Source of the DNA: Macrostomum lignano
Taxonomy: Eukaryota
Assembly: GCA_002269645.1 (NCBI GenBank)
Contig: NIVC01003947.1
Location: forward strand, 1 to 64,000
Direction of reading: 5' to 3'
Length of the DNA stretch: 64,000 nucleotides
Numbering within the stretch: the first letter of the stretch is position 1; every line of letters starts with the position of its first letter. Shown in pieces: positions 27,010-62,067 of this stretch. Made by a program: the position numbers and the translations under genes. The notes below the pieces were generated by a model. That model was not told the DNA's origin and did no database searches. It saw only the letters and a program-made list of their open reading frames with translations.

Positions 27010-27153
27010 TTCGAATATGGGAGTAGCTTTTACTGATGGATTTCGAATATGGGAGTAGCTTTTACTGATGGATTTCGAATATGGGAGTAGCTTTTACTGA
27101 TGGATTTCGGATATGGGAGTAGCTTTTACTGATGGATTTCGGATATGGGAGTA
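27010..27153. repeat. 32-bp tandem repeat (GAATATGGGAGTAGCTTTTACTGATGGATTTC), about 4.5 copies, abutting the Polinton left end
   Basis: Directly visible; the last copy is cut at GGAGTA exactly where the TIR begins. Confidence 0.95.
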
Positions 27154-28029
27154 AGTAGTAGTATGTTATAAGGGGCTGCGCCACACTTATCGCTCGGGCG
27201 CATTGCGCGCCAGCTCGCTGGATGACTCAGCCCCTTATAACATACTACTACTACTACCGGGAGGTCATAGTTGCAAGTGTGTGTGTGATAAATATAAAAA
27301 TATATAAATATACATATATCTGTGAGTGAGGGTGTTGAGGGTGAGGGCATGTGGGGGCATTGGCCTGTGGTATATTTCACAGAACACAGATTTTCCGGAA
27401 TTTTTATACTTTTTAAAAAGGGGGGTGCCCTCGCCCTCATGCCCTCACTCATTTTGAAAATCACTAAAAACAGGTGAAAAATGACTAAAAACAGGTGAAA
27501 ATGGTCTGAAAACAGCGATTTTTTGTAATTTTAAAAAATTTTGAAAAAGTGCAATTTTCACGATTCCAGCTCTAAAACCATGAGAAAGGTTGGATTCACG
27601 GGTCAATTTAATGCAATTTCAGGTATATACAATATGAAAGTGTCATCCAATTCAACGATAGTAATATATATATATATATATAAAATGGCCTTCAGTAAAC
27701 CATTATTTCTAGGAAATGCTTTAGATATTCAGTCAGCTATAACAAAACTGCCACTTGTCAACTCTGCAACAATGAAAAGCAGCACTCAACATTTCTATTG
27801 GCTTGCTGAAACATGAATAAATTCTGATGCAGATTTTGCACAATAGAATTACTTCTGAATTGCAAAATAAAATTCTCCTTCACCCTGTGGGACTGAATGT
27901 ATTCGAATTGTAGACAGCATTGTTATCACGATGACTAAGAATCATGGCTTCTTCCATATCTTCATCACCTCTGTCTTCTATTCTCTCTGACTCACTTAAA
28001 AACCCTCCAGCATCATGCAAAGAATTAAA
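27154..28029 (+). repeat. Left terminal inverted repeat of the Polinton
   Basis: Imperfect reverse complement of 44553-45411; homology ends at ...CAGCATCATGCAAAGAATTAAA. Confidence 0.95.
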
Positions 28030-28206
28030 ATACTCGCAGTAAAATACAATCTACCACTCATGGCACAGGCAGGAAGAGGCACAGGCTCTAAAGGCGACAG
28101 GCGCAAATGTAGCGAAAATTAAGAAGACAAAGTGTAATGCTAAAGTTGGATTATCTATAGAAATTTGCCCAAAAGAAAGCAAAAATGTTAAATTTTCTTA
28201 GAAAAA

Positions 28207-28550
28207 ATGGAAGCTAATAACCCAAATGTTCGAAATCCTCTGCCACAAAAATACTATGATTCTATTATAAATTTCTCTCAAATAAAAACACCCACTCGAA
28301 AGGCTCGACTAATTGAAGAAATTGATAAAGCTTACGATGAATATAAAGCAGAAATATTAAAACACAGCGATTGTAAATGCCCCCATATTTGTATTCATTC
28401 AGAGTATATCTTGCACATGTTGATAAATGGGCATTGATTTCGAGACAGCACATAAGGAATGATGAATTTTTCGTCATGCTTAAGTTGAACATTTTCAAAC
28501 TCCCCATAACCCTTGAGAAGTACATTGAAACTGATGAATTATATTGTTAA
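28207..28550 (+). pseudogene. Polinton hypothetical protein, probably frameshifted near 28430
   Basis: 76-aa ORF with AAAAAATG start and viral-like composition; an open +1/-1 frame continues (HVDKWALISRQHIRNDEFF...) to about 28550. Confidence 0.45.
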
Positions 28551-28566
28551 ATTTATTTTAAATAAA

Positions 28567-31023
28567 ATGGAAAGAAAAAATCAAAACGATTCAAGTTTCT
28601 CTCCTGTGATCGTACAGGATCCGCTTCAAAACCATGATGCCCCACCACCAAGATTGACAAATTTAAAACAAACAAAATCGTACGATAAACTAATTAATCT
28701 CTATGGAGAACTTAATTTTATATTCGGAGTTGCAGTATAACATGGAATAGTAAAACAAAGAAAAAAATACCATCAGGAATGCCAACCAAAGCAGATAGGA
28801 ATTCAACCTCCCACCATTTCGACCAGAGGTAGACAACATGATTTGGATAGATACTAGAAACTCAAATATAACCGTAATCGATATTGATAATGCTGACCTA
28901 TGCCCTGGTTGAATGAACTGTGTATGACTCATTGTGATTGGATTGTTCAGACAAACAAGGGACACCACTTTTACTTTAACAAGGTAGATGGATTGAAAGT
29001 AACGATTCAACAAAGTGTGGGTTTTGATATTCCAGCTTAGTATTTGCTCCACCAGGTTTCTATTATGTCGATGGTGAAATTAGGGAATACAAACGTATAA
29101 AGCCCGAAAGGTTAATAGACATGCCAGATGTAATTTTGATGAGATAAATAGATTAATTAAGCCACAGGATAAAAATGAAATCCAAGAACAAGATAAACAG
29201 GCACTAAAAAGCACCGTTCCATCACCCAGTTGTGAAGGAGTTTCAAAGTTGTTAAGTATAATACAACACAAAAACCAAGACTATGATTCTTGGTACAAGG
29301 TAGCACTTATACTCCGCGACATAGACAGTGGTGATGAAATGTACAAAGTATTCACTGATTGGTCAAAAGTAAATTATGATAAGTTCGATTCCGAATCATG
29401 TAAAAATGTGTGGAATAGCACCAGTACCAGCTCTGCTGATGCACAGGACAGACTTACTATCGGTACACTAAAGAAATGGGCTAGTGAAGAAAATTATTGT
29501 AAATATAAGGAATGGAAAAGCAAATATGATTACTATGGTAGGATTGAGTATCTTGATGATAATTTCACTGACGTTAACATAACCAACTTTGTTTATGAAT
29601 ATAAGAAGAATAATATAATTTACAATAGCGATGGTGTTTACTATTTTGATGATGATAAGTGGAGAGAACTAAGTAGTATAAATGACATATTTCTTAAAAT
29701 ATCACACCTTGTCAGCAGTGAGTTAAACCACCGAAAGACTAGACTCGAAATTGCAATTAAGAAGGCGGCTGATGATAAAGAGAAGTTAAAAGCACTTGAA
29801 AAGAAACTACAGAGTACAATGAAGAATATAAATTCAATACAAGGAGCCAACAAACTCAAACAGGTAACTACTTTGTTCAAAGAGAGGTTTACTAACAATG
29901 AAATTGAATTCGACATGAAATGGAATTTGCTAGGGTTTAACGATGGAGTATATGATCTCGCTACAGGTGAGTTTCGCGAGTATAGATATGACGATTACGT
30001 TACTAAATCGGTGGGATATAATTACTCGGATGTACTTAGAGTGAGTGATGACGACTATGACTTCATTGTTAATCTGCATAACCAAATTCATCCCGATCCA
30101 GAAAATAGAAAAGTTGGGAATCCGTTATAGCCACAGCTCTAATGGGTAAGAATGTTGAAAACTTTATAATGTTTGATGGCGCTGGTGGAAATGGCAAGGG
30201 GTTGAGGACAACCTACTTCTTAGAACTCTAGGATCTGATTATGCAGCACCACTGAGTCCTGATGTTTTGAATTCACCAATAAGAATAGACAGGCCACAAC
30301 CAGCCCTAGCACAAATTAATAAAAAGAGGTTGGTTATCAGTCAAGAAGTAAGTGGTGTCTTGAACAATGCATCAATAAAATTACTAACTGGCGGTGGGGT
30401 TATCCAAGCTAGAAATTTATATTCAAGCCAGTGTAATGTCGTTTTACACGCAACCCTAATAGTCGAATGCAACAACAAGCCTGACTTTAGACAAAATATT
30501 GGAGATGCAGAAAAAAGACGAATTATAAATATTAATTACCCATGTAAATATACAACAGATACCGACATCATTGATCCTGAGAAACACACTTACAAGGCCG
30601 ATCATATTTAAAAGTGAGGAGTTTAAGACTAAATATAAGTTTGCTGAGATGAAAAACCTACTAGAAATTTTCAAGCAAACAAAGGGTGAAATATATCGAT
30701 CGAAAAGCGTAATTGAAAACACTAATGAATTCATACAAAATTGTAATTGGTTTTCTCACTTCTTTGAAGAGAATTATGAATTTTTAGAAACTGAGGAAAA
30801 AACATTTATGCTTATTAGAGAAATTTACACTGCCGCAACAGAGAGTGAATACTATAGGACTCTAGCCCAACGTGAGAAACGTGAATTCCAACAACAATAC
30901 ATAACAGATTTCTTCAAGAATCACAAAGACTATTGTAAGTATTATAAGGATAGATATAGGCGTAGGATAGATGGTAAACAGCAAGAAACTAGAAATATTC
31001 TGTTTTACTGTGTAAAAAAATAA
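28567..31023 (+). pseudogene. Prim-Pol (AEP) + PriCT-2 + D5_N + SF3 helicase primase-helicase, multiply frameshifted
   Basis: ITVIDID (28868-28888), TNKGHHFYF (28951-28977) and VFAPPG in shifted frames; DYDSWYKVALIL...FTDWSKV.YDK (PriCT-2-like); LLGFNDGVYDL...YVTK (D5_N); Walker A GAGGNGKG (30178-30201); KRLVISQE; LIVECNNKP. Confidence 0.88.
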
Positions 31024-31044
31024 ACGAAGATGTTATCAATGAGA

Positions 31045-34000
31045 TTACATTGGCTGATGAGGAATAGATCTGATAGGATCCAAATAATATCTTTTATCAT
31101 CTAACGGACTCATTGTTTGTTTCATAATCTCACGAATATATATTTTATTTTTTTCAGATACAGTCATACTTACTCTACCTCTTTGAATATCTTTGTAATC
31201 TGTCAATAGTATGTTTTTAAATGTTTCAAACTTTATATTTGTACTGCCTTTATCAACTCCCTTGATCTTAACACACTCCCTGAAACTGTAGTGAAAGCAT
31301 ACTCCTTTGACCGCAGGAATACAGCTTCGGAAATTATTGAGCCATTCATTTCATCTTTCAACTTTCCAATGACTTTCTTGTTCGTCTCGGAGTATAGTGG
31401 ATGCTCTGTTGGATAATCCGATGTGTCTAAGTGTTCTTTAATTTTTTCAAGATCCTCATAAACATCCTGAGTAATCACTGAGAATATTAGCGAATCACAA
31501 TCAGAATAGTGCAATTGACAGCTGTTCCAATTCTTCTCAATAACATTGTAATAGCAATCGTACATTAGCATTTTTGCATAATCCAGAATAGCCATTCCTA
31601 AATAAATTGGCTTGTCACACGCAATTGTCTTTTTGTACATTTGGACACCAACTGCATCCTCACTAAACATAATGAAATCTTTGAAATTTGGTTTAGAAAA
31701 ATAACGCCTTGCAGTTTTTTCTTCAGCTACAAGATGAAAGTTCGACCTATTCTTTACATTTTCGATTGTTTTACCGTAGAATGAGTTGTTTAGTAGTTTC
31801 CACAGGTCTTTCTCAAATTTAGTTTTTGCTTCCATTCTCCGCCTGGTATTAAATTCGATGTATTTACTCAACCAGTTTGATTCTTTGAATGAAATAATTC
31901 TATGAACTCTCATAACTCGCATGCCCATCTTCTCATAAAACTCAAGTAGTCTGTGATGTAAAACATATTTCTCCTTGTTGTAAAATGTCAACATCAACTT
32001 GGATTGAACAAACTTTTTCTTTTCGACTTCGATATTGCTTCTGTATGTCAGATAAATCCTCAAATCTAGTTGTTCGTTTCTCAGGAGCCAGTGGATATTT
32101 ACTTGTAGCTTTCTTACATTCCTCTGTATATTCAAGGTCAACTTCAAGAAAACAACCCCTGCCATTAGGAATATTCTTGTGATACTCTAGATCATTTTCA
32201 AACTTGAAATCTCCCACAGGTAGATTTTTCATCATTGCTTCACCATATAAATTATTCTTGTCCAAGTATAGCATGTACGACGATTCAGAATTGCTGTCAT
32301 AATTTCTAAATACTTGTTATTCATTTTTTTATATCGATCTCCAAGAACTCCAGAGAAACCGCCGCGAATACCACTTTCTACCATGGATATCATTTCTTTA
32401 TCACCAAGTAATTCCAATTCCACATTAGTATATTTCAACCCACATGCCCACGATAATCCAGAAAGGGAAAAGCAATACGCAGGATCTATCTTGAAATATT
32501 TCAAAAATGTTGATCGAAACTTCTCAAAAGCATTGACAAATGAGTAAATCTTTCTAATTACTGCTGTTGTATCACTGGGTGGCAAATATTTTATTTCTTC
32601 TTCAGAGAGTGTAAATGGTGGTTCCAAAAACCTAGATCCATCTAAAAACACAACACCACTGGTATAATTCCCCAACTTAATTGCAACATGGTCTTCCGAT
32701 GTTTTAGAAATAAAATCCAATATATATTTTTTATTATTCATTCGTGTTAATGGAGCTATCAAATAGTTTAGATCTTTTCCAGATTCATTCAGAGAAACAA
32801 CGGTACTGTTTGATTCGCCTTGCCCTCCTTGGTATTACATGATTGACATGCTGCGCCGCGATATTTACCATTGTAGTGATTATGCTCTCGAATTTTTTTA
32901 CTATTACAAATGGCCTTGAGCAGAGAAAACATTGTTCTGCCGCTTTGTAATCAGTCTCTTCGACATCACTTAAACTTGGATGTTTATATCTATCCATTTC
33001 ATTTTTTATATGCTCAAACTTTTTGATTACGGTTTCAACGAATGATTCCACTGTAGTATTTGAAATAATATCTGATTTTATAATGTCCTCATAGTCGGAA
33101 CTAGTAAAAAGTGTCCATTGTGATAGCTCTAGTGATTTATCATCCATCGTTACATAATCTAATATTGCATAAAACACAAATGGTTTTCTTACACTCATGT
33201 GGTAGTTTTTAAACTTTAATATCCTCTTATCAATCTTTGGAACTTCAATTGACACTTTGAAGTCAGTACAGATTGCTTTATGATTATCCAGTGCATCCTG
33301 GGAGTATTTAACTTGAAGACACTTTCGACAAAGAAAAACCCTGTTGTAATTTTGGGACGTGAGGAATAAACACAAGTCTGTTATTAAACAATAATGATTT
33401 TTGACAAGTAGTAAATCAATAACATTGGGGTTGTCGTAATCTTCTGTCAGACGAATAGAATATATTGACTCTTTAGTATTTATATCCCTTAATCCAAACA
33501 CATTTATATGAAGACTGTTCAACTTTTCAATCTCAGAGATATCTCGAATGTCCACTGGAAATTTAACGTCTCCTAAGTTTATTTCATTTATATACTGTGT
33601 ATACTTACCAACTCTATATCTATGTTCCTTCACAGGATGGAGCTTTGCTAAAATAGACCAGAGAAAGCACCTATTGTCTGTAGTGTTCTTAACATTTACT
33701 AATGCGTTTGATTTAATTGGAATTGGAATATAAGTTCCTCCTTTCAACTGATTAATGCCAACAACTTTCAACACAATCTTTACTAACTTAACAAAATAAT
33801 ATCCCGATCCCCTTTCATTAAAACTATCCTTCCATCCATCGAATTCATCCAGAACATCCTGAATTGTACTTTCTATACTAGTTTCCACTTGGAGAAGATT
33901 TAACAAAGTTCGATACTTTGAATGATATTGGAACTCAATCCAACTGTCGGTAGTTCCTTTATAAAATTCTGCGACAAAGGAAATTCTGTATTTTATTGAA

Positions 34001-34107
34001 TCTCTAGCCATCAAATATTCGGAAAGAATTGGGGAGATTAAACCGCGAATTTCTTCAACGGAGTCGAGATCAAATTCATAAGAGGCCGCTGGTATTTTCC
34101 TTTCCAT
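31045..34107 (-). pseudogene. Protein-primed family B DNA polymerase (pPolB) with endonuclease VII-like insert, about 5 frameshifts
   Basis: Motifs YLDKNNLYG, KLLNNSFYGK, YSDCDS, KIKGV and C-terminal SPLDDKRY..P in shifted frames; N-terminal GGTYIPIP...DNRCFLWSIL typical of animal Maverick pPolB; CFLC...REHNHYNGKYRGAACQSCN at about 32835-32940. Confidence 0.95.
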
Positions 34108-34131
34108 TTTTAAGAAAAAAATTAAACAGAC

Positions 34132-34871
34132 TCAAGCATAGGGGGGTGCACTTGGAGCATTTGATTGAAGATTGAGTGTTGCCGAGTACTCTTTTGGCTT
34201 ATCAGCTAGACCCAATTTTTCTCTCAGATCTTTCTCCAGCAGTTCCTTTTTAATTTTTTCCTTCGCTGAATTACCAAGTCTACTCTCTTTGAGGATTTTA
34301 TCAACGACTTCCGAATGGTTAACTTCTTCAGGCGCAACACAGGCGTCTAACAATTGGTCTCTTTTCTCTCTGTATTCTGAATAAATTGCAGCAGCTGCTT
34401 GAACCTCTTCAAGAGTTAATCTATAATCATCAACTGCTTTTTGGGAGTAAATATACAATCTCTCTCTGTATTGATTTGCCAGATCTCTGAGAAAAATGTA
34501 TTTTGCCTTCTGCTTTTGGCAATGAATTTTCACAGTTGCAAACAACGACGTGGATTTTACAGCTTCAAAACCACTCATTGCCCCGATTACTACTCCAATA
34601 ACTAAGGGATTCAATGTCAGTATCGATGTTGCTATGCCAATTCCTGTAGCAGCCAAGAGACTTACATTTCCTGTCACAATGTTGATCCAATTTATCCTGC
34701 TACTTTGTCGTTTGTACTTTTTACCTTTTTGCTATAAATTGTAAGATCTTTAGTAATGCATTCAATACTGCCTTTGATTTCACCCTTTCTCTGATTGAAA
34801 TAGTCCCGCTCCCTCAAATCTGCTTCATGCAGCTCAACCACAGGATAGATGTGTTCATTTTTTTCATTCAT
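34132..34871 (-). pseudogene. Polinton membrane-associated protein (hydrophobic hairpin, C-terminal PSAPPY), one frameshift near 34715
   Basis: Start ATAAAAATG at 34871 (MNEKNEHIYP...), shift into KKYKRQSSRINWINIVTGNVSLLAATGIGIATSILTLNPLVIGVVIG; resembles the conserved hydrophobic protein of animal Mavericks (possibly the one called GasderminX; unverified). Confidence 0.65.
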
Positions 34872-34873
34872 TT

Positions 34874-36283
34874 TTATGTGGCGATTATGTCTAAAATCGG
34901 ATAAAGTTGAAAGCCTGAAACTATAAGAACAGTTGATCCTTCAGTGGTTGAATTAATATGCACTCTATAAACAGAGAATTTTTCGGTGGAAGCTACTTCG
35001 AAATACTTCATCACTCCAGGAACTAAACCAGCGTTTTCGGTAGAAAAAATATTCTTAAAGTCTCTCTTGTTATTGCTTCCTTTCAGAATAAAAATTTTTG
35101 GTTGATTTTTTATAATTTCACTACCCACTGCTTTGGTTCCTTTCAACCCGAATTTCCAAATTCGAATGGACTCGGGAAGTTGTACTTCAATGTAAGAATT
35201 GGGTTCATTCCTCGATGCCCATTCTGAATTAGATACTACATAACCCCAATTATCTGACGTTTCAAATGCTCCTGATGACGCTACATTGAAACCCCTTTCT
35301 CTATAGTTTTGACGTGTTGCTAGTGGGGGAATATATCCTGTATAAGATTTGAAACCTAGTCCCCGCCTTAGTCGCAGCTCCACTGATTCAAGTGCATTGT
35401 CTACGTATAGCTTTGGTACAGCTTGAAGTCTATCTATAGGCCACACTAAATCATTAACCACTGTTTGTCTCTCAAGTAATTCAACTTTTGTAAGCTTTAC
35501 GGAACCAGAAAAATTAAGAGAATAATGGAAATAATATGAGGGATTGGGTATTTTTTTCCTAAGATGTGCATTGCCTCTTCGTAGTTCAATGGGTGCACTT
35601 TGTTCAACAGGTGTCCAGTTTGTTCCATTTAGGCTCACACTAACAGACCAACCAGGCCACACCTCTCCTTCCAACTTTATCTCTACAACTTTCCTAGCTC
35701 TTTTCAGAAATTGAACTCGTATCCACTTGTCTGAGTCATCTACACTGCTCCATTCTGAAGCTGGGTTTGAATCTGCAACATGATATGCTGCTGAAGAGTT
35801 ATGAGAAGCGGTCACTTTCATGTCAGGATGGGAAGCGTTTGAAGTCAGTAATGAAAGAATATTGACTAATTTCGAACTCTCTGTACCTCCCGCAGTACCT
35901 TGCCTTTCTGCTAACAAAGTGTCAATCTCAGTTTTAGAATACATCTTAGTGTCAATCTCAGTTTTAGAATACATCTTAGTGTCAATTTCGGTTTTAGAAT
36001 ACATCTTAGTGTCAGTTTCGGTTTTTGTGTAGACATTGTTTACGCGCCCATGAGCATCGTCAATTAATTGTAGCATGGTGATATTCATTGCGTCACTATC
36101 TTCCTTTGAATAAGAGTCTGAAACATTTCTCTTTGCTAACAATAAATTATCTATTTCCTCTCTCTTATATCCTTCATTTTCATTGATGTATCGATCATCA
36201 GCTAACGCTATTGTTATTCCAGGTGCTATATCATTTGAATTTGACGAGTAACCAAATTGATTGGCAGTATTCTTGTAACTCAT
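34874..36283 (-). CDS. Putative fiber/receptor-binding protein: YSKTEIDTK repeats plus two discoidin (F5/8 type C)-like domains
   Basis: Intact 469-aa ORF; 4 repeats of (K)TE(I/T)DTKMYS; SEWSS..WIRVQF..VVEIKL..VSLNGTNWT and SEWAS..YIEVQLP..IWKFGL..LKGSNN..YRV patterns. Confidence 0.65.
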   Translation of the reverse strand: MSYKNTANQFGYSSNSNDIAPGITIALADDRYINENEGYKREEIDNLLLAKRNVSDSYSKEDSDAMNITMLQLIDDAHGRVNNVYTKTETDTKMYSKTEIDTKMYSKTEIDTKMYSKTEIDTLLAERQGTAGGTESSKLVNILSLLTSNASHPDMKVTASHNSSAAYHVADSNPASEWSSVDDSDKWIRVQFLKRARKVVEIKLEGEVWPGWSVSVSLNGTNWTPVEQSAPIELRRGNAHLRKKIPNPSYYFHYSLNFSGSVKLTKVELLERQTVVNDLVWPIDRLQAVPKLYVDNALESVELRLRRGLGFKSYTGYIPPLATRQNYRERGFNVASSGAFETSDNWGYVVSNSEWASRNEPNSYIEVQLPESIRIWKFGLKGTKAVGSEIIKNQPKIFILKGSNNKRDFKNIFSTENAGLVPGVMKYFEVASTEKFSVYRVHINSTTEGSTVLIVSGFQLYPILDIIAT

Positions 36284-36711
36284 TTTAATTGCTGCAAAAT
36301 TTCATTATAGCTATCTCCTTTATCGATTCGGTGTAAAAAGTACAGCGACATTTGACCACAAAATTTCTTATCAAAAGTTTGAATTTGTTCTTCCATGTCT
36401 CCACATATTCTATTCTTTGTGTGATTAAACTTTTCCATAATTTCCAGTGTGGGCGGTAGTGCATAGGAATCAAAAAAATAAACCTTATCAGGAGCTGAAA
36501 ATATAGCTGAATGATGTATACCCCGTTCTTTCGAAGTGTGAATATTTGTCATAAAGTAACCATACTGTGGTAAATCAACAATTTCATCTCTCATGGCATA
36601 GCGAAATGGTTTTAACTTGAGATATTTTGCCCAATTTATCAGATCAATATTAGTCGTAGTGTCAGTCCCAAACTTTTGTTTAAATGCATTCCATGTCTCA
36701 GCTTCGCTCAT
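36280..36711 (-). CDS. Adenain-like (C5) cysteine maturation protease
   Basis: GIHH (catalytic His region), YFFDSY, QIQ....FCG; start at TTAAAAATG 36711. Confidence 0.92.
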   Translation of the reverse strand: MSEAETWNAFKQKFGTDTTTNIDLINWAKYLKLKPFRYAMRDEIVDLPQYGYFMTNIHTSKERGIHHSAIFSAPDKVYFFDSYALPPTLEIMEKFNHTKNRICGDMEEQIQTFDKKFCGQMSLYFLHRIDKGDSYNEILQQLK

Positions 36712-36720
36712 TTTTAACAC

Positions 36721-37512
36721 TCATATTTGTCGTACGTGTAGATTTATAAATATTTCCTCGCCATCAAAGTCGTATAGAACACCAGACTCATCTTCGATGA
36801 CAAAGTCGAATGTGCTCAACATGTTTGTAGTTAGTGGTAGGTACACAGGATTTGCAGGCTCTTGAATAATTTTACTTCCCATTGGGACAGAGAACGATGG
36901 AATTGAAAGAAGTATTTGCTTATCAATTAAATGATTTCCATTGGCTGGATCAGTGATAAAACCCCCTTTGATATTGAGACAACGAACCATGATCGCACTT
37001 CTAGCTCCGTCTATCCGAGCTGGATTTGGAGCTCTCTCAAATGGTTTCAAATACACTTCCGAATTGAATCCCAACAGTCTTCTAAAGTTATTGGAATGTG
37101 CATCCCTGAAATCAACTTGATACTCTGTGGCTAACCGTAACTCAACTCTACGCGTGTCTAGGCTTGCACTGAAGACAATAGCTCCCTCTTTCCAATCATT
37201 TGCAGCTGTTAGCAATCTTTGAATCTCACTTGACAGACTTTTAACTTCCCAAGATCCTGCTTGAATCTTTATTTTCTTCCATGTTCTACCACTATCCCTC
37301 GAGTATCGCAACTCATTATTGCCTCCTTCAATATTGTTAATAGCATCAAAGACTGCAAACTTTTTTATACCAGCTTCGTATTCTCGATCTTCATACAAAT
37401 TTATAGGAGTGCCTAGAGTTTGTCGAAATGGGTTTTTAATTGAAAAGAAGTCAAATGTGCGTTGAAACTTTTTACTCAAGAGGATGTTGACTTTTTCTAT
37501 TTCTTTTTCCAT
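36721..37512 (-). CDS. Minor capsid protein (penton, single jelly-roll)
   Basis: Intact 263-aa ORF next to the protease; LLGF, I.VRC..I, EP.NPVYLP and I.DE.G..YDF.GE.I...LH patterns typical of Polinton minor capsid proteins. Confidence 0.85.
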   Translation of the reverse strand: MEKEIEKVNILLSKKFQRTFDFFSIKNPFRQTLGTPINLYEDREYEAGIKKFAVFDAINNIEGGNNELRYSRDSGRTWKKIKIQAGSWEVKSLSSEIQRLLTAANDWKEGAIVFSASLDTRRVELRLATEYQVDFRDAHSNNFRRLLGFNSEVYLKPFERAPNPARIDGARSAIMVRCLNIKGGFITDPANGNHLIDKQILLSIPSFSVPMGSKIIQEPANPVYLPLTTNMLSTFDFVIEDESGVLYDFDGEEIFINLHVRQI

Positions 37513-37514
37513 TT

Positions 37515-38244
37515 TTAAGCAAGTAATTCTGCTAGCTCTTTATCAACATTGTTATGTCCCTCTGCTTTTGCGGCTAGTAATGTCAACACTCTTTCACTGA
37601 GTCCAGATCCCGGTTTTACTCGATATCCTGGTGGATTATCTTTCAATATCCTTACTGCTTGCTTATAATTCCCACTTGATTTGGCCGCTGGATTTTTACA
37701 GTGTTCAATGAGGTTAACATAATCCTGCAATGTTTGCATCTTGAATTGCTTCAGCTCTTCACCATTTTCAGTTACTTTAGGCATTTTGAACAACTCTTCA
37801 AGATCTTCAGAAAATGGCATTCGAATTCGTTGACAATGATGTCTCGACCTTGTTCATGGAATTCAACATCTATTACAGATGATCCAAATATATATCCAGC
37901 ATCAGTTTTTTGAATCCGTATACTAGGCGCTGGTCTTTGAGTTATTGGAATCTTTCCAATTTCTTCAATTATTTTGTCAAATACTTCCAGGGTTCAAATC
38001 GTCCTTTTGGTGTACTTGATTGCGGAACTGGAACTTTTTGATTCTGAAGTTTATCAACAAGGTTGGCATTGACATCAATAAATTCATCGAGCTTTTCTGT
38101 GACAGGTTTTTGAGCTAATGGAGCCACTCTTGCATATAAACTCTCTTCTCCAATTTTCAAATAGCGTTGAGCATCATTTCTGGATTTGTACGTTTCTCGC
38201 TGCTTTGCTAAATTAATGAGTTCTCTTATATATTCATTAGTCAT
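37515..38244 (-). pseudogene. Conserved Polinton hypothetical protein, two frameshifts
   Basis: ORFs 37969-38244 and 37515-37820 are bridged by an open third frame (LEVFDKIIEEIGKIP...); C-terminal GSGLSERVLTLLAAKAEGHNN..E motif. Confidence 0.6.
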
Positions 38245-38246
38245 TT

Positions 38247-39009
38247 TTACAATGGGATTTTAGTTAGAACATCCTTATACAAATCTTGCTCATCCTCATC
38301 AGCTCTTGTATTTATATAGATATAGCCATACTTCTTTTTCCAAGCCTCTCTACATTTAGCCTTGATATAGCGTTTCGTTTCTATATTTCTAGCAATGTGA
38401 TTCAAGTTTGTATCTTTTTGTTTAAAGATTATGTAACATGTCGTATTCTCCCTGACAGTATTGCGATCTAGTTTGGTAAAATTTTGAGCTAGATAAAAAC
38501 CACAACAGTTTCCATGCCTGCCTCTCTGAAACAGACTTTCCTGAAATGTTTGATTAGCCTCTCCCAAAACATCGTCCAAATCACACATGTCTTTAGTCCA
38601 TTATGAAAAATTTCTTCATTTGGAGTATGGGAAAGAGTGACAGGAATTTTCTCTATTACTTCTGAATTTTCTGATGTGCTTTGCACTCGACCAGGGTTGG
38701 CTGCCTCTCGACAAATATGTCTAATATCTTCAGGAGATGCATCCTCACTCACCTGGTAGACATGATAGAGTGAGTTGATAAGAGAAGGTGGGAGACCATT
38801 TTCAAAGCCATATTTAGAAACTGATACTCTGGATCCATTTGAGATGCTCTGGGAACATATAAAACTAACTCATTAAAGTCAACTAGTTTTTCAGGACTTG
38901 TAAGAATATGGAATAGTAAATATGTTTTACCCGTATTTGTAGCGCCGATAATACAACATAAAAGAGGATTAGGGAAAATAGGATCATGCTGAAATTTTAC
39001 TTTGGGCAT
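38247..39009 (-). pseudogene. A32/FtsK-like genome packaging ATPase, two frameshifts
   Basis: Walker A IIGATNTGKT; LFQRGRH..C..FYLAQ and VREN...IIFKQ motifs spread over three ORFs. Confidence 0.9.
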
Positions 39010-39030
39010 TTAAAAAAAGAAAAAATGACC

Positions 39031-40395
39031 TTATTCGACGCGGGTCATTTGATATTCACTGGTAACTTTTATTACATTCTTTGTTTGTTCAAGAATTAGT
39101 GCAAAAGCAGTCAGCTCAACATTTGTTGACTTCTTGATAAATAATTGAATATTCACTCCACTCTTGACCAGAAACTCATCTTGAGCTGTTAGATCAAAGC
39201 AAAAGATTGGATAGATGGTTAGAAAGTCTTGTTTATTGAATGGAGGAGTTACACCGAAACGGCTGCAGATGTCTTCGTACATTTCATACGCTCTGTGAAT
39301 GTCTTGAGCTACTGGATCAATTTCAACATAATCATTCGGATACATCACCTGATTTAATCTGACTTGAAGCTGGGTTATTTTCACTGCATTTGCTCCAGTT
39401 TTGTAAGACACATACTTGTGATCATTAACTATATATGATGGGTTGTTTACGTCATATTTGAAAGCTACAAAGATTGCAAGTGGCATATTGGAGATGTTGG
39501 CTATGTTCCATGTATATGGACTTCCTTGAATGAGTTGTGGTGGAACCGTTACCCTCTCTGGAAATGATACTGTAATGTCCTTGTTGAGTGATTTTAGAAA
39601 AGCTGCTTCAGCACTGGGTGACAAAGTAATAGCAGGGATCCAAATCTCAAAGCTATTAATAGTTAACTTAGCTTCCGTCCCGGCAGCTCCAAAGAAAATT
39701 TCAGCATCGTTAGTCTTTCTTGTCCATGTGAATTTATATTTAATTCCTTTGCTAATCTTCTGCCAATCAAGGAACCCAATGAGAGGTGTTAATGATAGTT
39801 TGATTGTTCCACCTCTGTTTGGAGCATTAGTGACATTGTTATAATTTTCAAGCCTCCTAATGTATCCAGTATTCGAATCCTTCTTATTGAGTCTATTTTT
39901 CATAGCGATTGCTGCAGTTCTCACAGCTTCAGCATCTGCGTTGTTTGCTAGAGGTATATCAGAAACAGTCCCAGCATCTCCAGTGTCTGGAATCCATCCG
40001 TATGCTTCTCCAACTTCATTCATTAATTTTGAGTACATTACGGACTTTAAGATTGTGTCATACTCTCCAGGATCATTATAGACTTTCTTTGTTCCTCCAA
40101 TGTCAACTATGAGTTGAGAGAAAAGTCTCATAGGCCAATTATGTTCTAGAGTAATGTTCGTATTCAAGTCGGTGTTATCTCGTTGTGTTATTGAGTATTT
40201 TATACAACCGAATGCCTCTGACATGAGAATGTATGACTCTGTTGAATTGACTTCATGAACTATTTGACCTCCTGCAACATTGAGATTATTAGTGCTACCT
40301 GGAGTTGGAGAAATCTTAATATAGTCTTCTTTCTTTTTGAAAAAGCTAAAAGTTTTGTCCTCATATATGCTCAGTATATCCTTTTTGTTCTCCAT
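39031..40395 (-). CDS. Major capsid protein (double jelly-roll)
   Basis: Intact 454-aa beta-rich ORF between ATPase and core genes; NWPMRLFSQLIVDIGG, ITQLQVRLNQVMYP, YPIFCFDLT patterns. Confidence 0.88.
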   Translation of the reverse strand: MENKKDILSIYEDKTFSFFKKKEDYIKISPTPGSTNNLNVAGGQIVHEVNSTESYILMSEAFGCIKYSITQRDNTDLNTNITLEHNWPMRLFSQLIVDIGGTKKVYNDPGEYDTILKSVMYSKLMNEVGEAYGWIPDTGDAGTVSDIPLANNADAEAVRTAAIAMKNRLNKKDSNTGYIRRLENYNNVTNAPNRGGTIKLSLTPLIGFLDWQKISKGIKYKFTWTRKTNDAEIFFGAAGTEAKLTINSFEIWIPAITLSPSAEAAFLKSLNKDITVSFPERVTVPPQLIQGSPYTWNIANISNMPLAIFVAFKYDVNNPSYIVNDHKYVSYKTGANAVKITQLQVRLNQVMYPNDYVEIDPVAQDIHRAYEMYEDICSRFGVTPPFNKQDFLTIYPIFCFDLTAQDEFLVKSGVNIQLFIKKSTNVELTAFALILEQTKNVIKVTSEYQMTRVE

Positions 40396-40415
40396 TTTTA
40401 TAAGAGAAATTTCAA

Positions 40416-40868
40416 CTAAGCTTCATGAGGTCTAAGAATTATCCCATTACCCTGTTTCTCCTTTTCAACTTTAAAAGTCTTTAGCAGCCACTTGACTGCT
40501 TCGCTGGGTACTTGTTCGACTCTTTTAGCCGCATCAACTAATACTCCACTCCCTTGAGCCTTTTTCAACTCTTCTAGTTTTTGCCGTTCAATGCTTTCTA
40601 TTGTCTTATTATGTTTAGCATTGTTGGCTGTATTAACACTTTTTGCAATCATTGTACCAACTCCTGAGGCTGCTCCGATACCACCCAAAATTGCTGGTAG
40701 TAAGCCTAATAGAGGAATTATTCCACCTTCATGTTCTTTCTGTTTCTCTTGCAATTCTCGAATCTTCTCTTTAGAAAGATATTGCTTTTGCTTATTTACA
40801 GTAACATATCTTGGTTTTCCCTCTCGAACATATCGATTGAGTCTTGCTTCAGTGTTTTTCTCGCTCAT
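40416..40868 (-). CDS. Putative virion core/membrane-lytic protein with GG-IIPLL amphipathic segment
   Basis: Basic N-terminus, EGGIIPLLGLLPAILGGIGAASGVG, and QGSG/QGNG glycine motifs resembling protease sites. Confidence 0.65.
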   Translation of the reverse strand: MSEKNTEARLNRYVREGKPRYVTVNKQKQYLSKEKIRELQEKQKEHEGGIIPLLGLLPAILGGIGAASGVGTMIAKSVNTANNAKHNKTIESIERQKLEELKKAQGSGVLVDAAKRVEQVPSEAVKWLLKTFKVEKEKQGNGIILRPHEA

Positions 40869-40876
40869 TTTTAAGG

Positions 40877-41299
40877 TCAGAATTTCTTCAAACCATTGCC
40901 TTGTCTCAAAGACACTTGAGACTGTTCTGCTGTTCCTAGAGCCTTTTTAACAATATCTTGAATAGCCTTATTTGATTGAGAAGCTATCTGTTGCTCTTCT
41001 TCCATTCTTTTCTTTGCTTCTTTATCTCTACGTTTCTTTTTAATATATTCCAGTTCCTCACCTGCTTTAGACATGTCACTGTATGATTTCTTCGCATCGA
41101 ATATGTTCTTCGCTGTGGTAGCTGTTTTACCTATTGCATCAGCTCCACTCACAATTTTACTTCCATGATTTGATAAAAAGTTTGTGACACCACTGATCAT
41201 ATCACCAATTCCTTCACCCTCTTTATCAGCTAGTAGTTGTGAATCAGACGTTTCAATCTGACCTTTCGCCCGTTTGCAGTTTGTTCGATAGGCGCTCAT
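40877..41299 (-). CDS. Putative virion core protein with amphipathic helix
   Basis: True start probably CTAAAAATG at 41299 (MSAYRTNCKRAK); EGEGIGDMISGVTNFLSNHG amphipathic segment; basic coiled coil; RQGNGLKKF tail. Confidence 0.6.
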   Translation of the reverse strand: MSAYRTNCKRAKGQIETSDSQLLADKEGEGIGDMISGVTNFLSNHGSKIVSGADAIGKTATTAKNIFDAKKSYSDMSKAGEELEYIKKKRRDKEAKKRMEEEQQIASQSNKAIQDIVKKALGTAEQSQVSLRQGNGLKKF

Positions 41300-42527
41300 T
41301 TTTAGTTGAAAAATTTGCTGGTAGAAGCTGGGATTTGTAAAATGATCCAATGATTTCTTCTCCATTCTCATCCTCAATAATGTAGGTTATGGGATTGGAG
41401 TAAACTATTTTCTTTATCCTAAACACTTCTGAAATTTTCCAATATCCTCTTCGACCCTTTTCAAAGTGCTCCTTATATCTATAGATATGAACTTTGTCAC
41501 CTACTTTGAAGTTTGGTTTCTCATTTGAATACTCGAAAGTTGGCTTTGGTACTCGCTCAGGATGTTTAGATGCTTCTGAAGGAGTTATCAGAATCTCAGA
41601 ATGGATTGTGTTGTTGTATTTTTCAACAATAGCTGGCAATGTGTGGAGCCACTTCTGATTACCCTGTAGATCAAATTCAAACCAGAGTTTATTTGTGAGA
41701 GTACGATTGAACCTCTCAATCATTGCATTCTTGGACTCGCCATAAATTGAAAACATCTTGTTAATATATTCACCCCTTTCATCCTTCTTTCTAATGTTGT
41801 CTTTTGAAAACGAGTATAGCTTGTACATATGCTGATTATAAAACTCCTTGCCTTCATCTACACAAAGTCTCTCTGATCGTCTTCCTGATTCCTTAAATAC
41901 TTTTTGGAAAGCTTCTGCAACTTCCGCTCCCGTCTTTGTTTTCAAAGGAACTGCCCAGGCGTAACGTGTAAAACCATCTATGATAGTTAGAGCATATTTG
42001 TAACCTCTTTCGGGCGGTAGGATAATGATATCTGCATGCCAAATTGTGTCTTTTGCATAGTGAATCATTTTTCTAAATACTCTTGGCTTTCGATATTCTT
42101 TATGCAATTTTACTGCATCTTCATAGCTAAGACCCTTACCATAAATTGTTAGACAGTCTATACAATTGTTGGGGTTGTGAGTATGAATGCCTAATCCAAA
42201 CCGAACTTTAGCCTTGATAATACGCTTTACTAGATTTCGAATGAGTCTCTCTTTCACAGACAAGTCACTGGTTGGAATAGCATCTAAATCAGCTATCATT
42301 TTTTCATCAGCTATATGCTTCTTTGCTAGAGCTTCCTCTGGATTTGAAGAAGTGTTTTCAGCATCTCTATAGTTTTTGTCATGATAGTAAGCAGTCCAAT
42401 CGATTGGGTTAATTGGTAGACTGTCATACCGAGGCCGGTCTGTAATTGGATTGAGTCTCTTGTCTAAATTTGTACCGGGCAGTTGATCCTCAGTCTTTCG
42501 AAAGAGGCTGGACTTTATCTTAAGGCA
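41253..42527 (-). CDS. PLA2-like (parvovirus-type, PLA2X) domain fused in frame to an RVE (retroviral-type) integrase; start codon not resolved
   Basis: Frame is open from 42527: LPGTNLDKRL...PINPIDWTAYYHDKNY (HD at 42383-42378)...KHIADEKMIADL, continuing into WHADII, TIIDGFTRYAWAVPLKTK, VDEGKEF, MIERFNRTL (DDE triad). Confidence 0.9.
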   Translation of the reverse strand, partial: CLKIKSSLFRKTEDQLPGTNLDKRLNPITDRPRYDSLPINPIDWTAYYHDKNYRDAENTSSNPEEALAKKHIADEKMIADLDAIPTSDLSVKERLIRNLVKRIIKAKVRFGLGIHTHNPNNCIDCLTIYGKGLSYEDAVKLHKEYRKPRVFRKMIHYAKDTIWHADIIILPPERGYKYALTIIDGFTRYAWAVPLKTKTGAEVAEAFQKVFKESGRRSERLCVDEGKEFYNQHMYKLYSFSKDNIRKKDERGEYINKMFSIYGESKNAMIERFNRTLTNKLWFEFDLQGNQKWLHTLPAIVEKYNNTIHSEILITPSEASKHPERVPKPTFEYSNEKPNFKVGDKVHIYRYKEHFEKGRRGYWKISEVFRIKKIVYSNPITYIIEDENGEEIIGSFYKSQLLPANFSTKNERLSNKLQTGERSD

Positions 42528-42626
42528 TCATCAGGATTGACCAGATCCTTCAGCCCCACCTCCATAAAGTCTCTGAACCTTCTCCATATCCTTGTCAACT
42601 TTAATGGACGTACCATAGGTACTCGA

Positions 42627-43262
42627 TCAAAGATCGGACTTAGGAGCTTGGCTGCGGATTTCCACCATGTCCTCAAGCTTGTTACCGTTGGGAACAGGAA
42701 TTACCTGTGTTCCTTCAGAAGATTTCTCAGCTGAAGTGGTACTTGAGGCTATTGAAGGAGTTCCCGCAATTTGAAGGTGTCGCCATTCACTAAGCACTTG
42801 TTTAACCTTGGTTATAATGTTTGTGTATTTATCCCGATAAAGAAATTTCAATGCAAAATCGCCTGTTACAAGGGTGATTCCATTGTCTAGTAAAATATTC
42901 TTAGGTTCGTTTGCAGTTTTATTGATGCATACATAAAACAACTGGTAGGTGGGATTAGACTTTTTATAGTCTAATAGTTTCCGATAGTTACTTTCACGAC
43001 TTGAGGAATTGTCTGTTTTATCAGAAGATTTAAGCTCTAATGCAATCTTTCGCTCAACGTGAACCAGGTCAATCTTTTTTACCTTTTCGAATCCAAAATA
43101 TTTTTCTGCTAAAACTTCATATAGTCTACCTAGTCTCATTTGAATAACTTTAATCTTGTGTGAAATTATTAGCTCTTCTTGAAATAAATCGCAAAGAATT
43201 TGGTCATACCCCACCTTGTCGTCAATTGGTTTCAAGAGAATTTCTCGAATTTTTTGCTCCAT
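42627..43262 (-). CDS. Putative PD-(D/E)XK nuclease, type II restriction endonuclease-like (Eco47II/SinI-like pattern)
   Basis: Intact 211-aa ORF with GTAAAAATG start; IQMRLGRLYE...IDLVHVERKIALELKSSDKTDNSSS gives D-x10-ELK plus the TxNSSS tail recalled for that family. Confidence 0.6.
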   Translation of the reverse strand: MEQKIREILLKPIDDKVGYDQILCDLFQEELIISHKIKVIQMRLGRLYEVLAEKYFGFEKVKKIDLVHVERKIALELKSSDKTDNSSSRESNYRKLLDYKKSNPTYQLFYVCINKTANEPKNILLDNGITLVTGDFALKFLYRDKYTNIITKVKQVLSEWRHLQIAGTPSIASSTTSAEKSSEGTQVIPVPNGNKLEDMVEIRSQAPKSDL

Positions 43263-43769
43263 TTTTACTTTAAAAAATTTAACAAGTGCTTATCGATCGC
43301 CCTGAAGGGACGCGAGCTCTGCTCGATGACTAGCAAGGACATTGACTTTCCTCACTCAGGCCACAAGGTAACCTGCAAAAGAATACCCTGGAATATGAAA
43401 TTCTCCAGGATATTTTCCAGTAGAGAAGATGGGTGGCAGTTTTGTCATAGCTGACTGAATGTCTAATGCAGAACCAAGAAATAGTGGTATATTGAAGGCC
43501 ATTTTATAGAGATTTTTTTATTTCTTTATTTTCACTTGTAAAGTGTTTGTATACATTCCATTGAGTACTTAATAGACTGAATTTTAAGACAAGTTGAGAC
43601 AATAATCCAAAGCGACATGTTACACAAAACAGATCGCTGATAAAAGATCTTGGTATATTTTAAAAGAAACTTATAAGACGATGCATAACAATCCTTAGTC
43701 ACAGTCACAATGACAATCCTTAGTCACAGTCCTTACAGTCCTCCTTAGTCACAGTCACAGTGATAGTCC

Positions 43770-44186
43770 TTAGTCACTCATGTCTTGGTCTTGAGCAGCT
43801 TGGTCTTGAGCAGCTTGGTTTTGAGCAGCTTGGTCTTGAGCAGCTTGGTCTTGAGCAGCTTGGTTTTGAGCAGCTTGTTGTTGAGCATCCTCGTATGTCG
43901 GAGGTGCCTCTGGAACGTCTACATCTAGCGAGCGCTCGATTTCTAGTTGGCGTTGATTTTCTAAGATAGAACGATCCTTCGCAATGGTTTTTTTAACTAG
44001 CCTAAGCATCGCAATGTCGTTCTCAATTTTGTCGAAGTATACGCGATAATGCTCAAGGAATTGATTCTCATTTGTAGACGTGACGAAGCTAGTATTGGGG
44101 TATTGTGTGTGAATCAAACCTCTCAAATTGTTTCTCTCTTGTGTGTTCACAAGTATTCTAGCACGCCTAGTTGGATTTCCGGGCAT
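43770..44186 (-). CDS. Polinton hypothetical protein with coiled coil, PPTY motif and QAAQ(D/N) repeats
   Basis: 138-aa ORF; the 15-bp repeat at about 43790-43880 encodes QAAQD/N six times. Confidence 0.55.
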   Translation of the reverse strand: MPGNPTRRARILVNTQERNNLRGLIHTQYPNTSFVTSTNENQFLEHYRVYFDKIENDIAMLRLVKKTIAKDRSILENQRQLEIERSLDVDVPEAPPTYEDAQQQAAQNQAAQDQAAQDQAAQNQAAQDQAAQDQDMSD

Positions 44187-44552
44187 TCTGTTCGTTCGGA
44201 ATGAAAACTGATAATTTAAGCAGAGGACACTTGTTGCGGATACTCTATTTTGGGTATGCCCTTAAATGCTGTCTAAAATGTCTTATGCCAGCCGCTAATT
44301 GGTTGCCACTGCCCTGCCACTGCCCTGCCACTGCCCTGCCACTGCCTTGCCACTGCCCTGTGGCAGTGACAGATTTTTTCTCTCTAGAGTGAGTGAGTAG
44401 CAGTGTGTTATACGGGGCTGAGTCATCCAGCGGCAGCGAGCTGGCGCGCAATGCGCCCGAGCAATAAGTGTGGCATTGAAGTGGGTTGCAAATGCATGCT
44501 GTAGCAGCTTGGAGGGGAGTTGATGAATGGCTGTTCGCAGCTAATCTAAACC

Positions 44553-45411
44553 TTTAATTCTTTGCATGATGCTGGAGGGTTTTTGAGTGAGTCAGAGAGA
44601 ATAGAAGACAGAGGTGATGAAGATATGGAAGAAGCCATGATTCTTAGTCATCGTGATAACAATGCTGTCTACAATTCGAATACATTCAGTCCCACAGGGT
44701 GAAGGAGAATTTTTTTGCAATTCAGAAGTAATTCTATTGTGCAAAATCTGCATCAGAATTTATTCATGTTTCAGCAAGCCAATAGAAATGTTGAGTGCTG
44801 CTTTTCATTGTTGCAGAGTTGACAAGTGGTAGTTTTGTTATAGCTGACTGAATATCTAAAGCATTTCCTAGAAATATTGGTTTACTGAAGGCCATTTTAT
44901 ATATATATAATTTACTATCGTTGAATTGGATGACACTTTCATATTGTATATACCTGAAATTGCATTAAATTGACCCGAGGATCCAACTTTTCTCATGGTT
45001 TTAGAGCTGGAATCGTGAAAATTGCACTTTTTCAAAATTTTTGAAAATCACAAAAAATCGCTGTTTTCAGACCATTTTCACCTGTTTTTAGTCATTTTTC
45101 ACTTATTTTTAGTGATTTTCAAAATGAGTGAGGGCATGAGGGCGAGGGCACCCCCCCTTTTTAAAAGTATAAAAATTCCGGAAATTCTGTGTTCTGTGAA
45201 ATATTCCACAGGCCAATGCCCCCACATGCCCTCACCCTCAACACCCTCAGTCACAGATATATGTATTTTTATATTTATCACACACCCCACTTGAATCCAT
45301 GACCTCCTGGTAGTAGTAGTATGTTATAAGGGGCTGAGTCATCCAGCGAGCTGGCGCGCAATGCGCCCGAGCAATTAAGTGTGGCGCAGCCCCTTATAAC
45401 ATACTACTACT
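44553..45411 (-). repeat. Right terminal inverted repeat of the Polinton
   Basis: Reverse complement of 27154-28029 with scattered mismatches and indels; ends CATACTACTACT at 45411. Confidence 0.95.
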
Positions 45412-61470: not shown

Positions 61471-61572
61471 TATCTCCATAATGTATTTTTTTCGGTAAAA
61501 CATGCCTCCTAAAAGTTTCCAAGAAAAATTCAGCTCCAAGAAATTTCTCATCCAATCATATATATATCTGAG

Positions 61573-62067
61573 ATGATGGCACTGATTGCAGCCAGAATGA
61601 GAGTACTATTCGCTATTGACAGCAGCGAGCACGCCAAACGTGCATTGACTTGGTTTGCCAAACTATACGCCAATCGTTTATCGCCTGGCGACACGGCTCT
61701 GCTGTTTCTGTTTGTGGCCGAGCCGCCGTCCTTCGGTCCGAGCCTGTCCACGCCGGAGCTGTACGCCGGCGCAATCAACGATGCCGTCGCTGAAGGCCGC
61801 TCCCTGGCCGTGGAGATCAAGACCACCTGCGCTCGGCTGGGGCTCGCCAGTTTGGCCAATCGGCTGGAATTTCTCGAACGGCTGGGCCACGGAGCTGGCC
61901 CGTCTATAGTTCAGGTGGCTCACGAGGAAGCCGTCGAGCTTATTGTTATGGGTAGCCGCGGCTCCGGCCTACTTCGGCGCACCTTTCTAGGCAGCGTTAG
62001 CGACTACGTGCTGCATCATTCTCATGTGCCTGTGATTGTTGTGCCGCCCCCTGCGGTGCAGCACTAG
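61573..62067 (+). CDS. Universal stress protein (UspA family), intronless
   Basis: RVLFAIDSSEHAKRAL N-terminus; IVMGSRGSGLLRRTFLGSVSDYVLHHSHVPVIVVP with the G-2x-G-9x-GSV ATP-binding motif; 164 aa intact. Confidence 0.96.
   Translation: MMALIAARMRVLFAIDSSEHAKRALTWFAKLYANRLSPGDTALLFLFVAEPPSFGPSLSTPELYAGAINDAVAEGRSLAVEIKTTCARLGLASLANRLEFLERLGHGAGPSIVQVAHEEAVELIVMGSRGSGLLRRTFLGSVSDYVLHHSHVPVIVVPPPAVQH

Follow-up and report, generated by a model that had tools for sequence, protein, structure and literature searches.

The 64,000-nucleotide stretch of Macrostomum lignano DNA analysed here (contig NIVC01003947.1, positions 1 to 64,000; "the window") carries an 18.3-kb Polinton/Maverick element in which a primase-helicase gene and a gene encoding a DNA polymerase that uses protein priming (pPolB) run towards each other. 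The primase-helicase combines a Prim-Pol domain, of the archaeo-eukaryotic primase (AEP) kind, with a superfamily 3 (SF3) helicase. The pPolB appears to retain its priming and polymerase parts and has a decayed exonuclease. Judged from their sequences, the two resemble halves of a single copying machine more closely than two spare systems, and the primase-helicase could supply the DNA unwinding that the pPolB has probably lost. A single hybrid replisome, with protein-primed starts, helicase-driven unwinding and Prim-Pol priming of the displaced strand, is the reading we favour, and we give it an even chance of being right.

A primase-helicase with an intact Prim-Pol motif set

Eight frame breaks interrupt the primase-helicase gene in the window copy (near 28.73, 28.81, 28.91, 29.04, 29.14, 30.11, 30.20 and 30.61 kb). 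They divide it into nine pieces, with bounds taken from intact relatives, and no stop codon lies inside any of them. The homopolymer context of the breaks is the same as the background. An earlier note on this DNA had read AEP motifs across such breaks, upstream of PriCT_2, D5_N and the SF3 Walker A motif, and all of these are found: IDID (28877), TNKGHHF (28951) and FAPP (29043) stand in three different frames, and the Walker A stretch GGNGK is at 30184. The note had also named profiles that the corrected protein should match. PriCT_2 and D5_N pass their cut-offs (Table 1), whereas the SF3 core scores 19.4 bits with DUF5906, below the cut-off of 27.6 (E 0.0017), and the Pfam AEP models match none of the single frames of 28567-29150. 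The SF3 core is 41-42% identical to relatives P0003-P0005; we take the residues labelled Walker B Glu, motif C Asn and Arg-finger in Table 1 to be such.

The Prim-Pol region was also read with X at each frame break and scored on profiles of its relatives. This reading gives 53 bits on a profile of five relatives that are Prim-Pol-positive in Pfam, where the best of 1000 shuffles gives 7.5. On an eight-row profile from which the four closest relatives had been left out, it still gives 38 bits (best of 1000 shuffles, 8.9). The aspartate pair of motif I, the histidine and the third aspartate are all kept in the window copy. In the aligned relatives, the three aspartates are invariant and the histidine is present in 12 of 13; tyrosine replaces it in the close relative P0005, while the intact relatives P0276/L002 and P0277 retain it. 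An inactive primase remnant was considered and rejected, as the motifs are intact.

A search of 1.84 billion representatives returned 1679 relatives, with 150 among the matches listed. The N-terminal pieces align to P0091, P0005, P0008 and P0027. When 30 relatives were scanned, five passed the Prim-Pol model (PF09250) and nine passed AEP_C962R; the close relative P0091 is barely above the PF09250 cut-off, and L002 and P0277 are below it. The predicted fold of L002, which is an intact relative and not the window's own domain (predicted local distance difference test score, pLDDT, 87), best matches the pRN1 primase-polymerase. Against 3m1m the Z score is 10.8 (root-mean-square deviation 3.1, 163 aligned residues), the top four Foldseek matches are all pRN1, and the poxvirus E5 AEP reaches a Z score of only 2.1. 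The top viral structural match of this model is an annotated D5 family helicase-primase of Bodo saltans virus. The window has no match to a C962R-type profile made from nine PF23162-positive relatives, against 90 bits to the Prim-Pol profile. The order PriCT_2, D5_N, SF3 is that of the core D5 of Nucleocytoviricota, and matches to C962R and D5 in the PDB cover those parts only. By sequence and predicted fold, the primase is of the pRN1 Prim-Pol type and not of the D5 type of poxviruses and African swine fever virus (ASFV). Orthology to the giant-virus core D5 was rejected, since the AEP domain is of the wrong type.

The helicase tree was built from 82 of 158 rows, after the removal of rows longer than 1100 aa or failing a motif or length filter. 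In it the window belongs to an eight-member clade (support 0.99), and the same Prim-Pol domain occurs in the three members that are full-length database entries. The closest helicase relatives, like L001 and L002, sit on contigs of 1.4-6.3 kb, too short to reveal partners. Five members of the same wider clade (P0018, P0123, L056, L035 and L011) have other N-terminal domains, none with a Pfam match, some of which we take to be PolA/TVpol-like by their motifs. These other N-termini represent domain swapping of the kind seen in the replicases of polinton-like viruses (PLVs).

A pPolB that keeps its priming parts and has lost its exonuclease

The pPolB was read with X at its five breaks and aligned to 81 homologues of at least 1000 aa among the 120 listed (345 found). 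The best homologue is 57% identical, and those with names, among the matches listed, are mostly from mussel, spider and nematode. The spans that hold TPR1 and TPR2 are close to the homologue medians (152 versus 156 residues between motifs A and B, 99 versus 99 between B and C). A model of the N-terminal piece (pLDDT 84) begins with a domain of four strands and two helices. In the terminal-protein domain, the linking residue has been placed between helix 2 and the last strand (PMC11161782; here and below, papers are cited for their accessible text), and a serine occupies that position in 75 of the 81 homologues. The cysteine and histidine of the vOTU domain occur in 79 and 80 of the 81, and with PMC11161782 Cys147 and His238 are probably catalytic. 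With the terminal-protein serine, the vOTU pair and the TPR spans all kept, protein priming therefore looks intact in sequence and model. Loss of protein priming was accordingly rejected as an explanation, the terminal-protein and vOTU domains being intact.

The exonuclease is different. The Asp and Glu of Exo I, present in 79 and 80 of the 81 homologues, are changed. Exo II is partly kept, including its Asn and Asp. The Tyr and Asp of Exo III, found in all 81 homologues, are gone, and the span has shrunk to 39 aa where the homologue median is 113. With four close homologues, the window pPolB shares 25-28% identity from Exo II to Exo III and 52-54% in the polymerase domain, compared with 58-60% and 60-61% for two control pairs. 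On an exonuclease profile built from the other rows, the window scores 124 bits, the lowest of 82 (next 239, median 410). A search of the Atlas with the exonuclease piece gave no usable match. The HNH insert within this region is recognised by PF02945 (30.1 bits, cut-off 23.6). In a midpoint-rooted pPolB tree, the window sits on a long branch nested among homologues with an intact exonuclease; mavirus, at 16% identity, is not among the rows of this tree. By this nesting, the exonuclease loss is thus derived and separate from that of mavirus. Two homologues (P0208 and P0228) have partial deletions of the exonuclease region (the Exo I segment; part of the Exo II-III span) and keep Exo III.

A pairing shared by the family

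The earlier note had described the two genes as converging with a gap of 21 nt, and their stops, at 31023 and 31045, agree with this. The pairing was then followed in public sequencing runs. Twenty runs from eight studies of one organism contain at least half of the sampled words. Contigs of four of these runs, each from a different study (X1, X2, X4 and X12), were compared with the window over 28000-34800 (32 of 400 pieces). Three of the four runs, from three studies, have contigs that bridge the 21-nt junction (Table 1). At six of the eight breaks in the primase-helicase gene, two to four runs have contigs whose length departs from that of the window (12 of 44 rows); those breaks therefore belong to the window copy or its assembly. 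The primase-helicase gene is covered along its length in all four runs, as is the pPolB by long contigs. With the junction bridged in three runs and six breaks not shared, the pairing is therefore a family trait that recurs across studies. The same holds for the exonuclease loss, because X1 and X12 each have a single contig that spans the region with no change in length from the window, and the X1 contig has too few unlisted differences to accommodate a canonical Exo I.

Base differences between window and contigs were counted from the best-supported 40 of 279, with runs pooled and the window's own errors included. In the primase-helicase gene, 12 of 25 are synonymous, where 19% is expected (p 0.001).

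Related elements also occur with other neighbours. At 34139, contigs of X4 and X12 run leftwards into unrelated DNA, and contigs of X1 and X12 do so at 28189-28194. The unrelated DNA extends for at least 255 letters, in one case 38, and the two points are borders of the replication module.

A proposed hybrid replisome and its alternatives

The phi29 polymerase works without a primase or a helicase, and the tunnel that strips the downstream duplex is formed in part by its exonuclease domain (PMC4974454). As the exonuclease is part of this strand-displacement tunnel, a pPolB without it may need a helicase. Exonuclease loss accompanies helicase gain in mavirus and PLVs (PMC11161782). In the favoured reading, replication would start at the element ends by priming on the terminal protein that is part of the pPolB itself. 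The exonuclease-less pPolB would unwind poorly and would not proofread. A hexameric SF3 helicase would open the duplex, and the fused Prim-Pol/PriCT_2 unit would prime the displaced strand or re-prime stalled synthesis. The primase-helicase gene may have come from the pool of AEP-SF3 replicases of PLVs and giant viruses; its arrival would have allowed the exonuclease to decay and left the two genes mutually dependent. The earlier note had proposed two replication systems in one element. An AEP primase-helicase and a pPolB with the parts for protein priming do coexist there, but the latter lacks its exonuclease, and "two systems" is probably the wrong description. The mixed protein-primed and internal priming that the note had suggested would be part of the favoured reading. 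In a stricter version, the hybrid replisome would be obligate for an animal Polinton family, with starts by protein priming, SF3 unwinding and internal priming by Prim-Pol; it is offered tentatively, as a possibility that we would sooner doubt than accept.

In favour of this reading stand the decay of the exonuclease beside conserved polymerase, terminal-protein, vOTU and TPR parts, the retained Prim-Pol residues, the share of synonymous differences in the primase-helicase gene, the recurrence of the junction and of the short exonuclease in independent runs, the phi29 tunnel, and ten viral contigs (below) in which an exonuclease-bearing pPolB showed no related helicase in the available DNA. 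Several observations weigh against the favoured reading. The residue after the Walker A lysine is glycine in close relatives (32 of the 81 relatives counted), and the ATPase activity is a prediction. Only three of the 12 base differences in the pPolB are synonymous (p 0.44), which in this tiny sample fits relaxed selection. Mavirus-type helicases have no recognisable primase domain in the accessible text of PMC3671162, and given this the primase may be dispensable here too. A fusion of a superfamily 1 (SF1) helicase with a pPolB has a complete exonuclease (PMC12721341) and is a counter-example to a strict trade-off, so helicase gain is not always tied to exonuclease loss. Finally, the link between exonuclease loss and helicase gain rests on one family in the present data.

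The foremost alternative is a replacement in progress, which the earlier note had also raised. Here a self-sufficient Prim-Pol-SF3 replicase would have entered by the terminal repeat, and the pPolB would be on its way out, with the exonuclease lost first. The gene does lie just inside the left repeat, as in the end-module turnover model of PMC11296320, and AEP-SF3 proteins take the place of pPolB in many PLVs and group 2 Polintons. Nine of the 12 pPolB base differences are non-synonymous, and the other DNA left of 34139 in X4 and X12 contigs means that some copies may have another gene in place of pPolB. However, the polymerase domain (52-54%), the terminal-protein serine, the vOTU cysteine and histidine and the TPR spans have been conserved while the exonuclease fell to 25-28%, which weakens the idea. 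In addition, the rve integrase is intact, both repeats are kept, no tyrosine recombinase was seen among the ORFs of the element, and long contigs cover the pPolB in all four runs. Replacement is a live rival, but an unlikely one.

It is distinctly unlikely that the helicase alone matters, as in mavirus, with all initiation protein-primed and Prim-Pol incidental or at most active in repair and restart. At 18 kb, the genome is well short of the roughly 45 kb that protein priming can serve on its own (PMC4405056), the SF3 helicase that accompanies the exonuclease-less pPolB of mavirus shows no further recognisable domain, and P0005 has lost the motif histidine to tyrosine. Against this, the window copy keeps PriCT_2 and all three Prim-Pol motifs, with the histidine conserved in 12 of 13 aligned relatives.

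A third possibility, which we consider very unlikely, is that the primase-helicase is a selfish passenger, a mobile AEP-SF3 gene useless to the element, and that the exonuclease was lost for unrelated reasons. Bodo saltans virus, source of the top viral structural match, carries a further 11 AEP-SF3 genes, for which mobility has been proposed (bioRxiv 10.64898/2026.10.13.758929), and the loose ends at 28189-28194, with other DNA upstream in some contigs, would suit such a gene. Yet it is not bracketed by repeats, lies 21 nt from the pPolB, is covered lengthwise in all four runs, and coincides with an exonuclease loss found in none of the 81 homologues. An artefact, whether assembly chimera or chance motifs, has negligible probability despite the missing target-site duplication, the 25 substitutions between the repeats and the many frame breaks, as the profile score is far above the shuffles and the junction is bridged in three runs of three studies; a chimera was rejected on the latter ground.

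Comparison with known systems

The pairing was sought in other DNA. Ten distinct viral contigs with a related pPolB all match the exonuclease profile, and no related helicase was found beside the pPolB in the available DNA of these contigs. No PolB was found near 79 loci of more distant helicase relatives (from the best 80 of 476), in a screen that is weak for other PolB classes; its generic PolB motif test recovers only two of 11 known pPolB loci. Scans of viral contigs with the window helicase piece, an alignment of its close relatives and the capsid protein gave no relative.

Polintons with a D5-like primase-helicase or an SF3 helicase (S3H) exist and are uncommon (PMC4405056, PMC3671162). 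They share with the present element the bounding terminal inverted repeats (TIRs), the pPolB, the rve integrase, the capsid module and an SF3 primase-helicase. The accessible text of those papers states no primase type, catalytic status or exonuclease loss; here the primase is of pRN1 type, its motifs are intact and the pPolB lacks Exo I and III. Mavirus and its relatives likewise have an exonuclease remnant and a separate S3H gene (PMC11161782, PMC13215967), whereas the present element has a pPolB of the HNH-bearing pPolB2 lineage, a Polinton-type capsid and a helicase with Prim-Pol and PriCT_2. In structure and sequence, the nearest matches are the AEP-S3H replicases of PLVs and the additional AEP-SF3 genes that Bodo saltans virus carries, which have the same order of Prim-Pol, PriCT_2, D5_N and SF3. 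Group 2 Polintons and PLVs have AEP-SF3 fusions in place of pPolB (bioRxiv 10.64898/2026.06.19.733378, PMC4642659, PMC12220804). Such replicases usually take over from pPolB and accompany tyrosine recombinases; here the gene coexists with pPolB and rve.

The pPolB2-class Polintons of invertebrates and oomycetes also carry the HNH (endonuclease VII) insert, and their polymerase domains are 52-57% identical to that of the window pPolB (bioRxiv 10.1101/2023.08.22.554363). In the accessible text of that survey of about 22,000 Polinton pPolBs, Exo I-III are conserved in all taxon groups, whereas two of these motifs are gone from the window pPolB. Polisuviricotina genomes in which a second replicase occurs are described as rare stages of turnover, often with internal repeats as brackets (bioRxiv 10.64898/2026.10.13.758929). 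They too have two replicase classes in one element, but the present one differs in having no such repeats, a pair that is found again across several studies, and an altered pPolB. A literature search, with figures, supplements, Repbase and subscription journals outside its scope, found no canonical Polinton in which a Prim-Pol-SF3 gene adjoins a pPolB without exonuclease. The co-occurrence itself is thus known, if uncommon; what appears to be new is the fit between a specific pPolB lesion and the predicted activities of the facing gene.

Layout of the element

The element spans 27154-45411, with ends AG...CT and terminal inverted repeats of about 870 nt that are 95% identical (25 substitutions apart). 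By its TIRs, pPolB, rve integrase and double jelly-roll (DJR) capsid gene, it is a Polinton/Maverick. A 6-bp target-site duplication is a hallmark of these elements. No duplication of 5-7 bp was found at any tested pair of element ends, and the flanks of the window copy may have been rearranged. The left flank (27130-27153) is a short tandem repeat, and the right flank (45412-45430) is a Gypsy-like reverse-transcriptase fragment (PF00078). The primase-helicase gene is just inside the left repeat, with no repeats bracketing it, and no tyrosine recombinase is seen among the open reading frames (ORFs) of the element. Neither piece of the small ORF upstream of it matches Pfam. The protease-, minor capsid- and ATPase-like ORFs also have no Pfam match; we presume their names from gene order and motifs.

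Table 1. Coordinates of the element, its genes and the domains of the two replication proteins
Feature	Position	Strand	Details
Left terminal inverted repeat	27154..28029	+	start AGTAGTAGT; 99-nt terminal palindrome; 95% identity to right repeat
Small ORF upstream of primase-helicase	28207..~28550	+	one break
Prim-Pol/PriCT_2/D5_N/SF3 helicase gene	28567..31023	+	~810 codons; nine pieces in window copy
Prim-Pol domain (pRN1 ORF904 type)	28700..29140	+	DxD 28880-28888, His 28966, third Asp 29026
PriCT_2	29243..29482	+	PF08707, 45.9 bits (cut-off 22), E 7e-12
D5_N	29588..30031	+	PF08706, 51.9 bits (cut-off 22.4), E 1e-13
SF3 ATPase core (predicted)	30178..30525	+	Walker A GxxxxGK, Walker B Glu, motif C Asn, Arg-finger region
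Gap between converging stops	31024..31044		21 nt; bridged by contigs of runs X2, X4, X12
pPolB (HNH-bearing pPolB2 type)	31045..34107	-	~1010 codons; six pieces in window copy
Polymerase domain	31045..32310	-	motifs A, B, C intact; TPR1, TPR2 spans normal
Decayed 3'-5' exonuclease with HNH insert	32528..33175	-	Exo I changed; KGxYPY and Exo III missing
vOTU protease domain	33390..33700	-	Cys147, His238
Terminal-protein (D1) domain	33760..34090	-	Ser101 in Gly-Ser-Gly loop, helix 2 to last strand
Fibre-like ORF, F5/8 type C domain	34874..36301	-	PF00754, E 3e-9
Maturation protease-, minor capsid-, packaging-ATPase-like ORFs (ATPase broken)	36280..38869	-	BLAST to ORFs of pPolB locus L018, E 3e-6 to 1e-15
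DJR major capsid protein gene	39031..40422	-	PF21738, E 2e-13, above cut-off
PLA2-like domain and rve integrase	41253..42527	-	PF00665, E 6e-10, above cut-off; PF08398, E 1e-3, below cut-off
Right terminal inverted repeat	44553..45411	-

Both ends of the element (27154-27252 and 45312-45411) are palindromic over 99 nt, with a stem of 25 bp worth about -32 kcal/mol as DNA, and a partial copy occurs at 44396-44474. On sequence grounds, the terminal palindromes are candidates for an origin or a hairpin end. The earlier note had seen the primase-helicase gene and one small ORF as the only plus-strand unit. The small ORF is there, but a 43-codon plus-strand ORF within the left repeat (27682-27813), mirrored in the right repeat, had been missed. 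It copies the 5' exon at 43500-43370 in truncated form (83% DNA identity over 89 nt).

In the PLA2-integrase gene, the PLA2-like motif is interrupted by a group I intron at 42480-43370 on the minus strand (RF00028 match at 42489-42849, 82.6 bits, E 5e-20). The intron contains a restriction-endonuclease-like ORF (42630-43262), and its presumed 5' splice site lies in a P1-like helix. Group I introns are known from protist PLVs, with no annotated endonuclease in the accessible text of PMC12220804; a literature search for one in an animal Polinton found none.

Outside the element, the window contains a universal-stress-protein (Usp) gene (61513-62064, PF00582, E 2e-24) and a weak zf-AD-like ORF (56784-57650). 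Together with the Gypsy-like fragment and the named pPolB homologues, they suggest that the host is an invertebrate. Host segments are duplicated at 5374-8611/19435-22653 and 27-2057/24882-26923 (96% and 88% identity), and there are long arrays of a 16-nt tandem repeat.

Implications

Viruses of this group normally use either protein-primed or primase-primed replication, and a switch in priming is thought to underlie the turnover of PLV replicases and the rise of giant viruses. The present family stably carries both genes across several studies, which turns a vague notion of two systems into a testable claim on why the helicase is retained, and it offers an independent test of the proposed trade-off between exonuclease and helicase. 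If the doubtful obligate hybrid were true, this Polinton family would be the third in which, independently, loss of the exonuclease was coupled to the gain of a helicase. It would also be a living counterpart of a step in giant-virus origins, in which a D5-like primase-helicase was gained before the pPolB was replaced.

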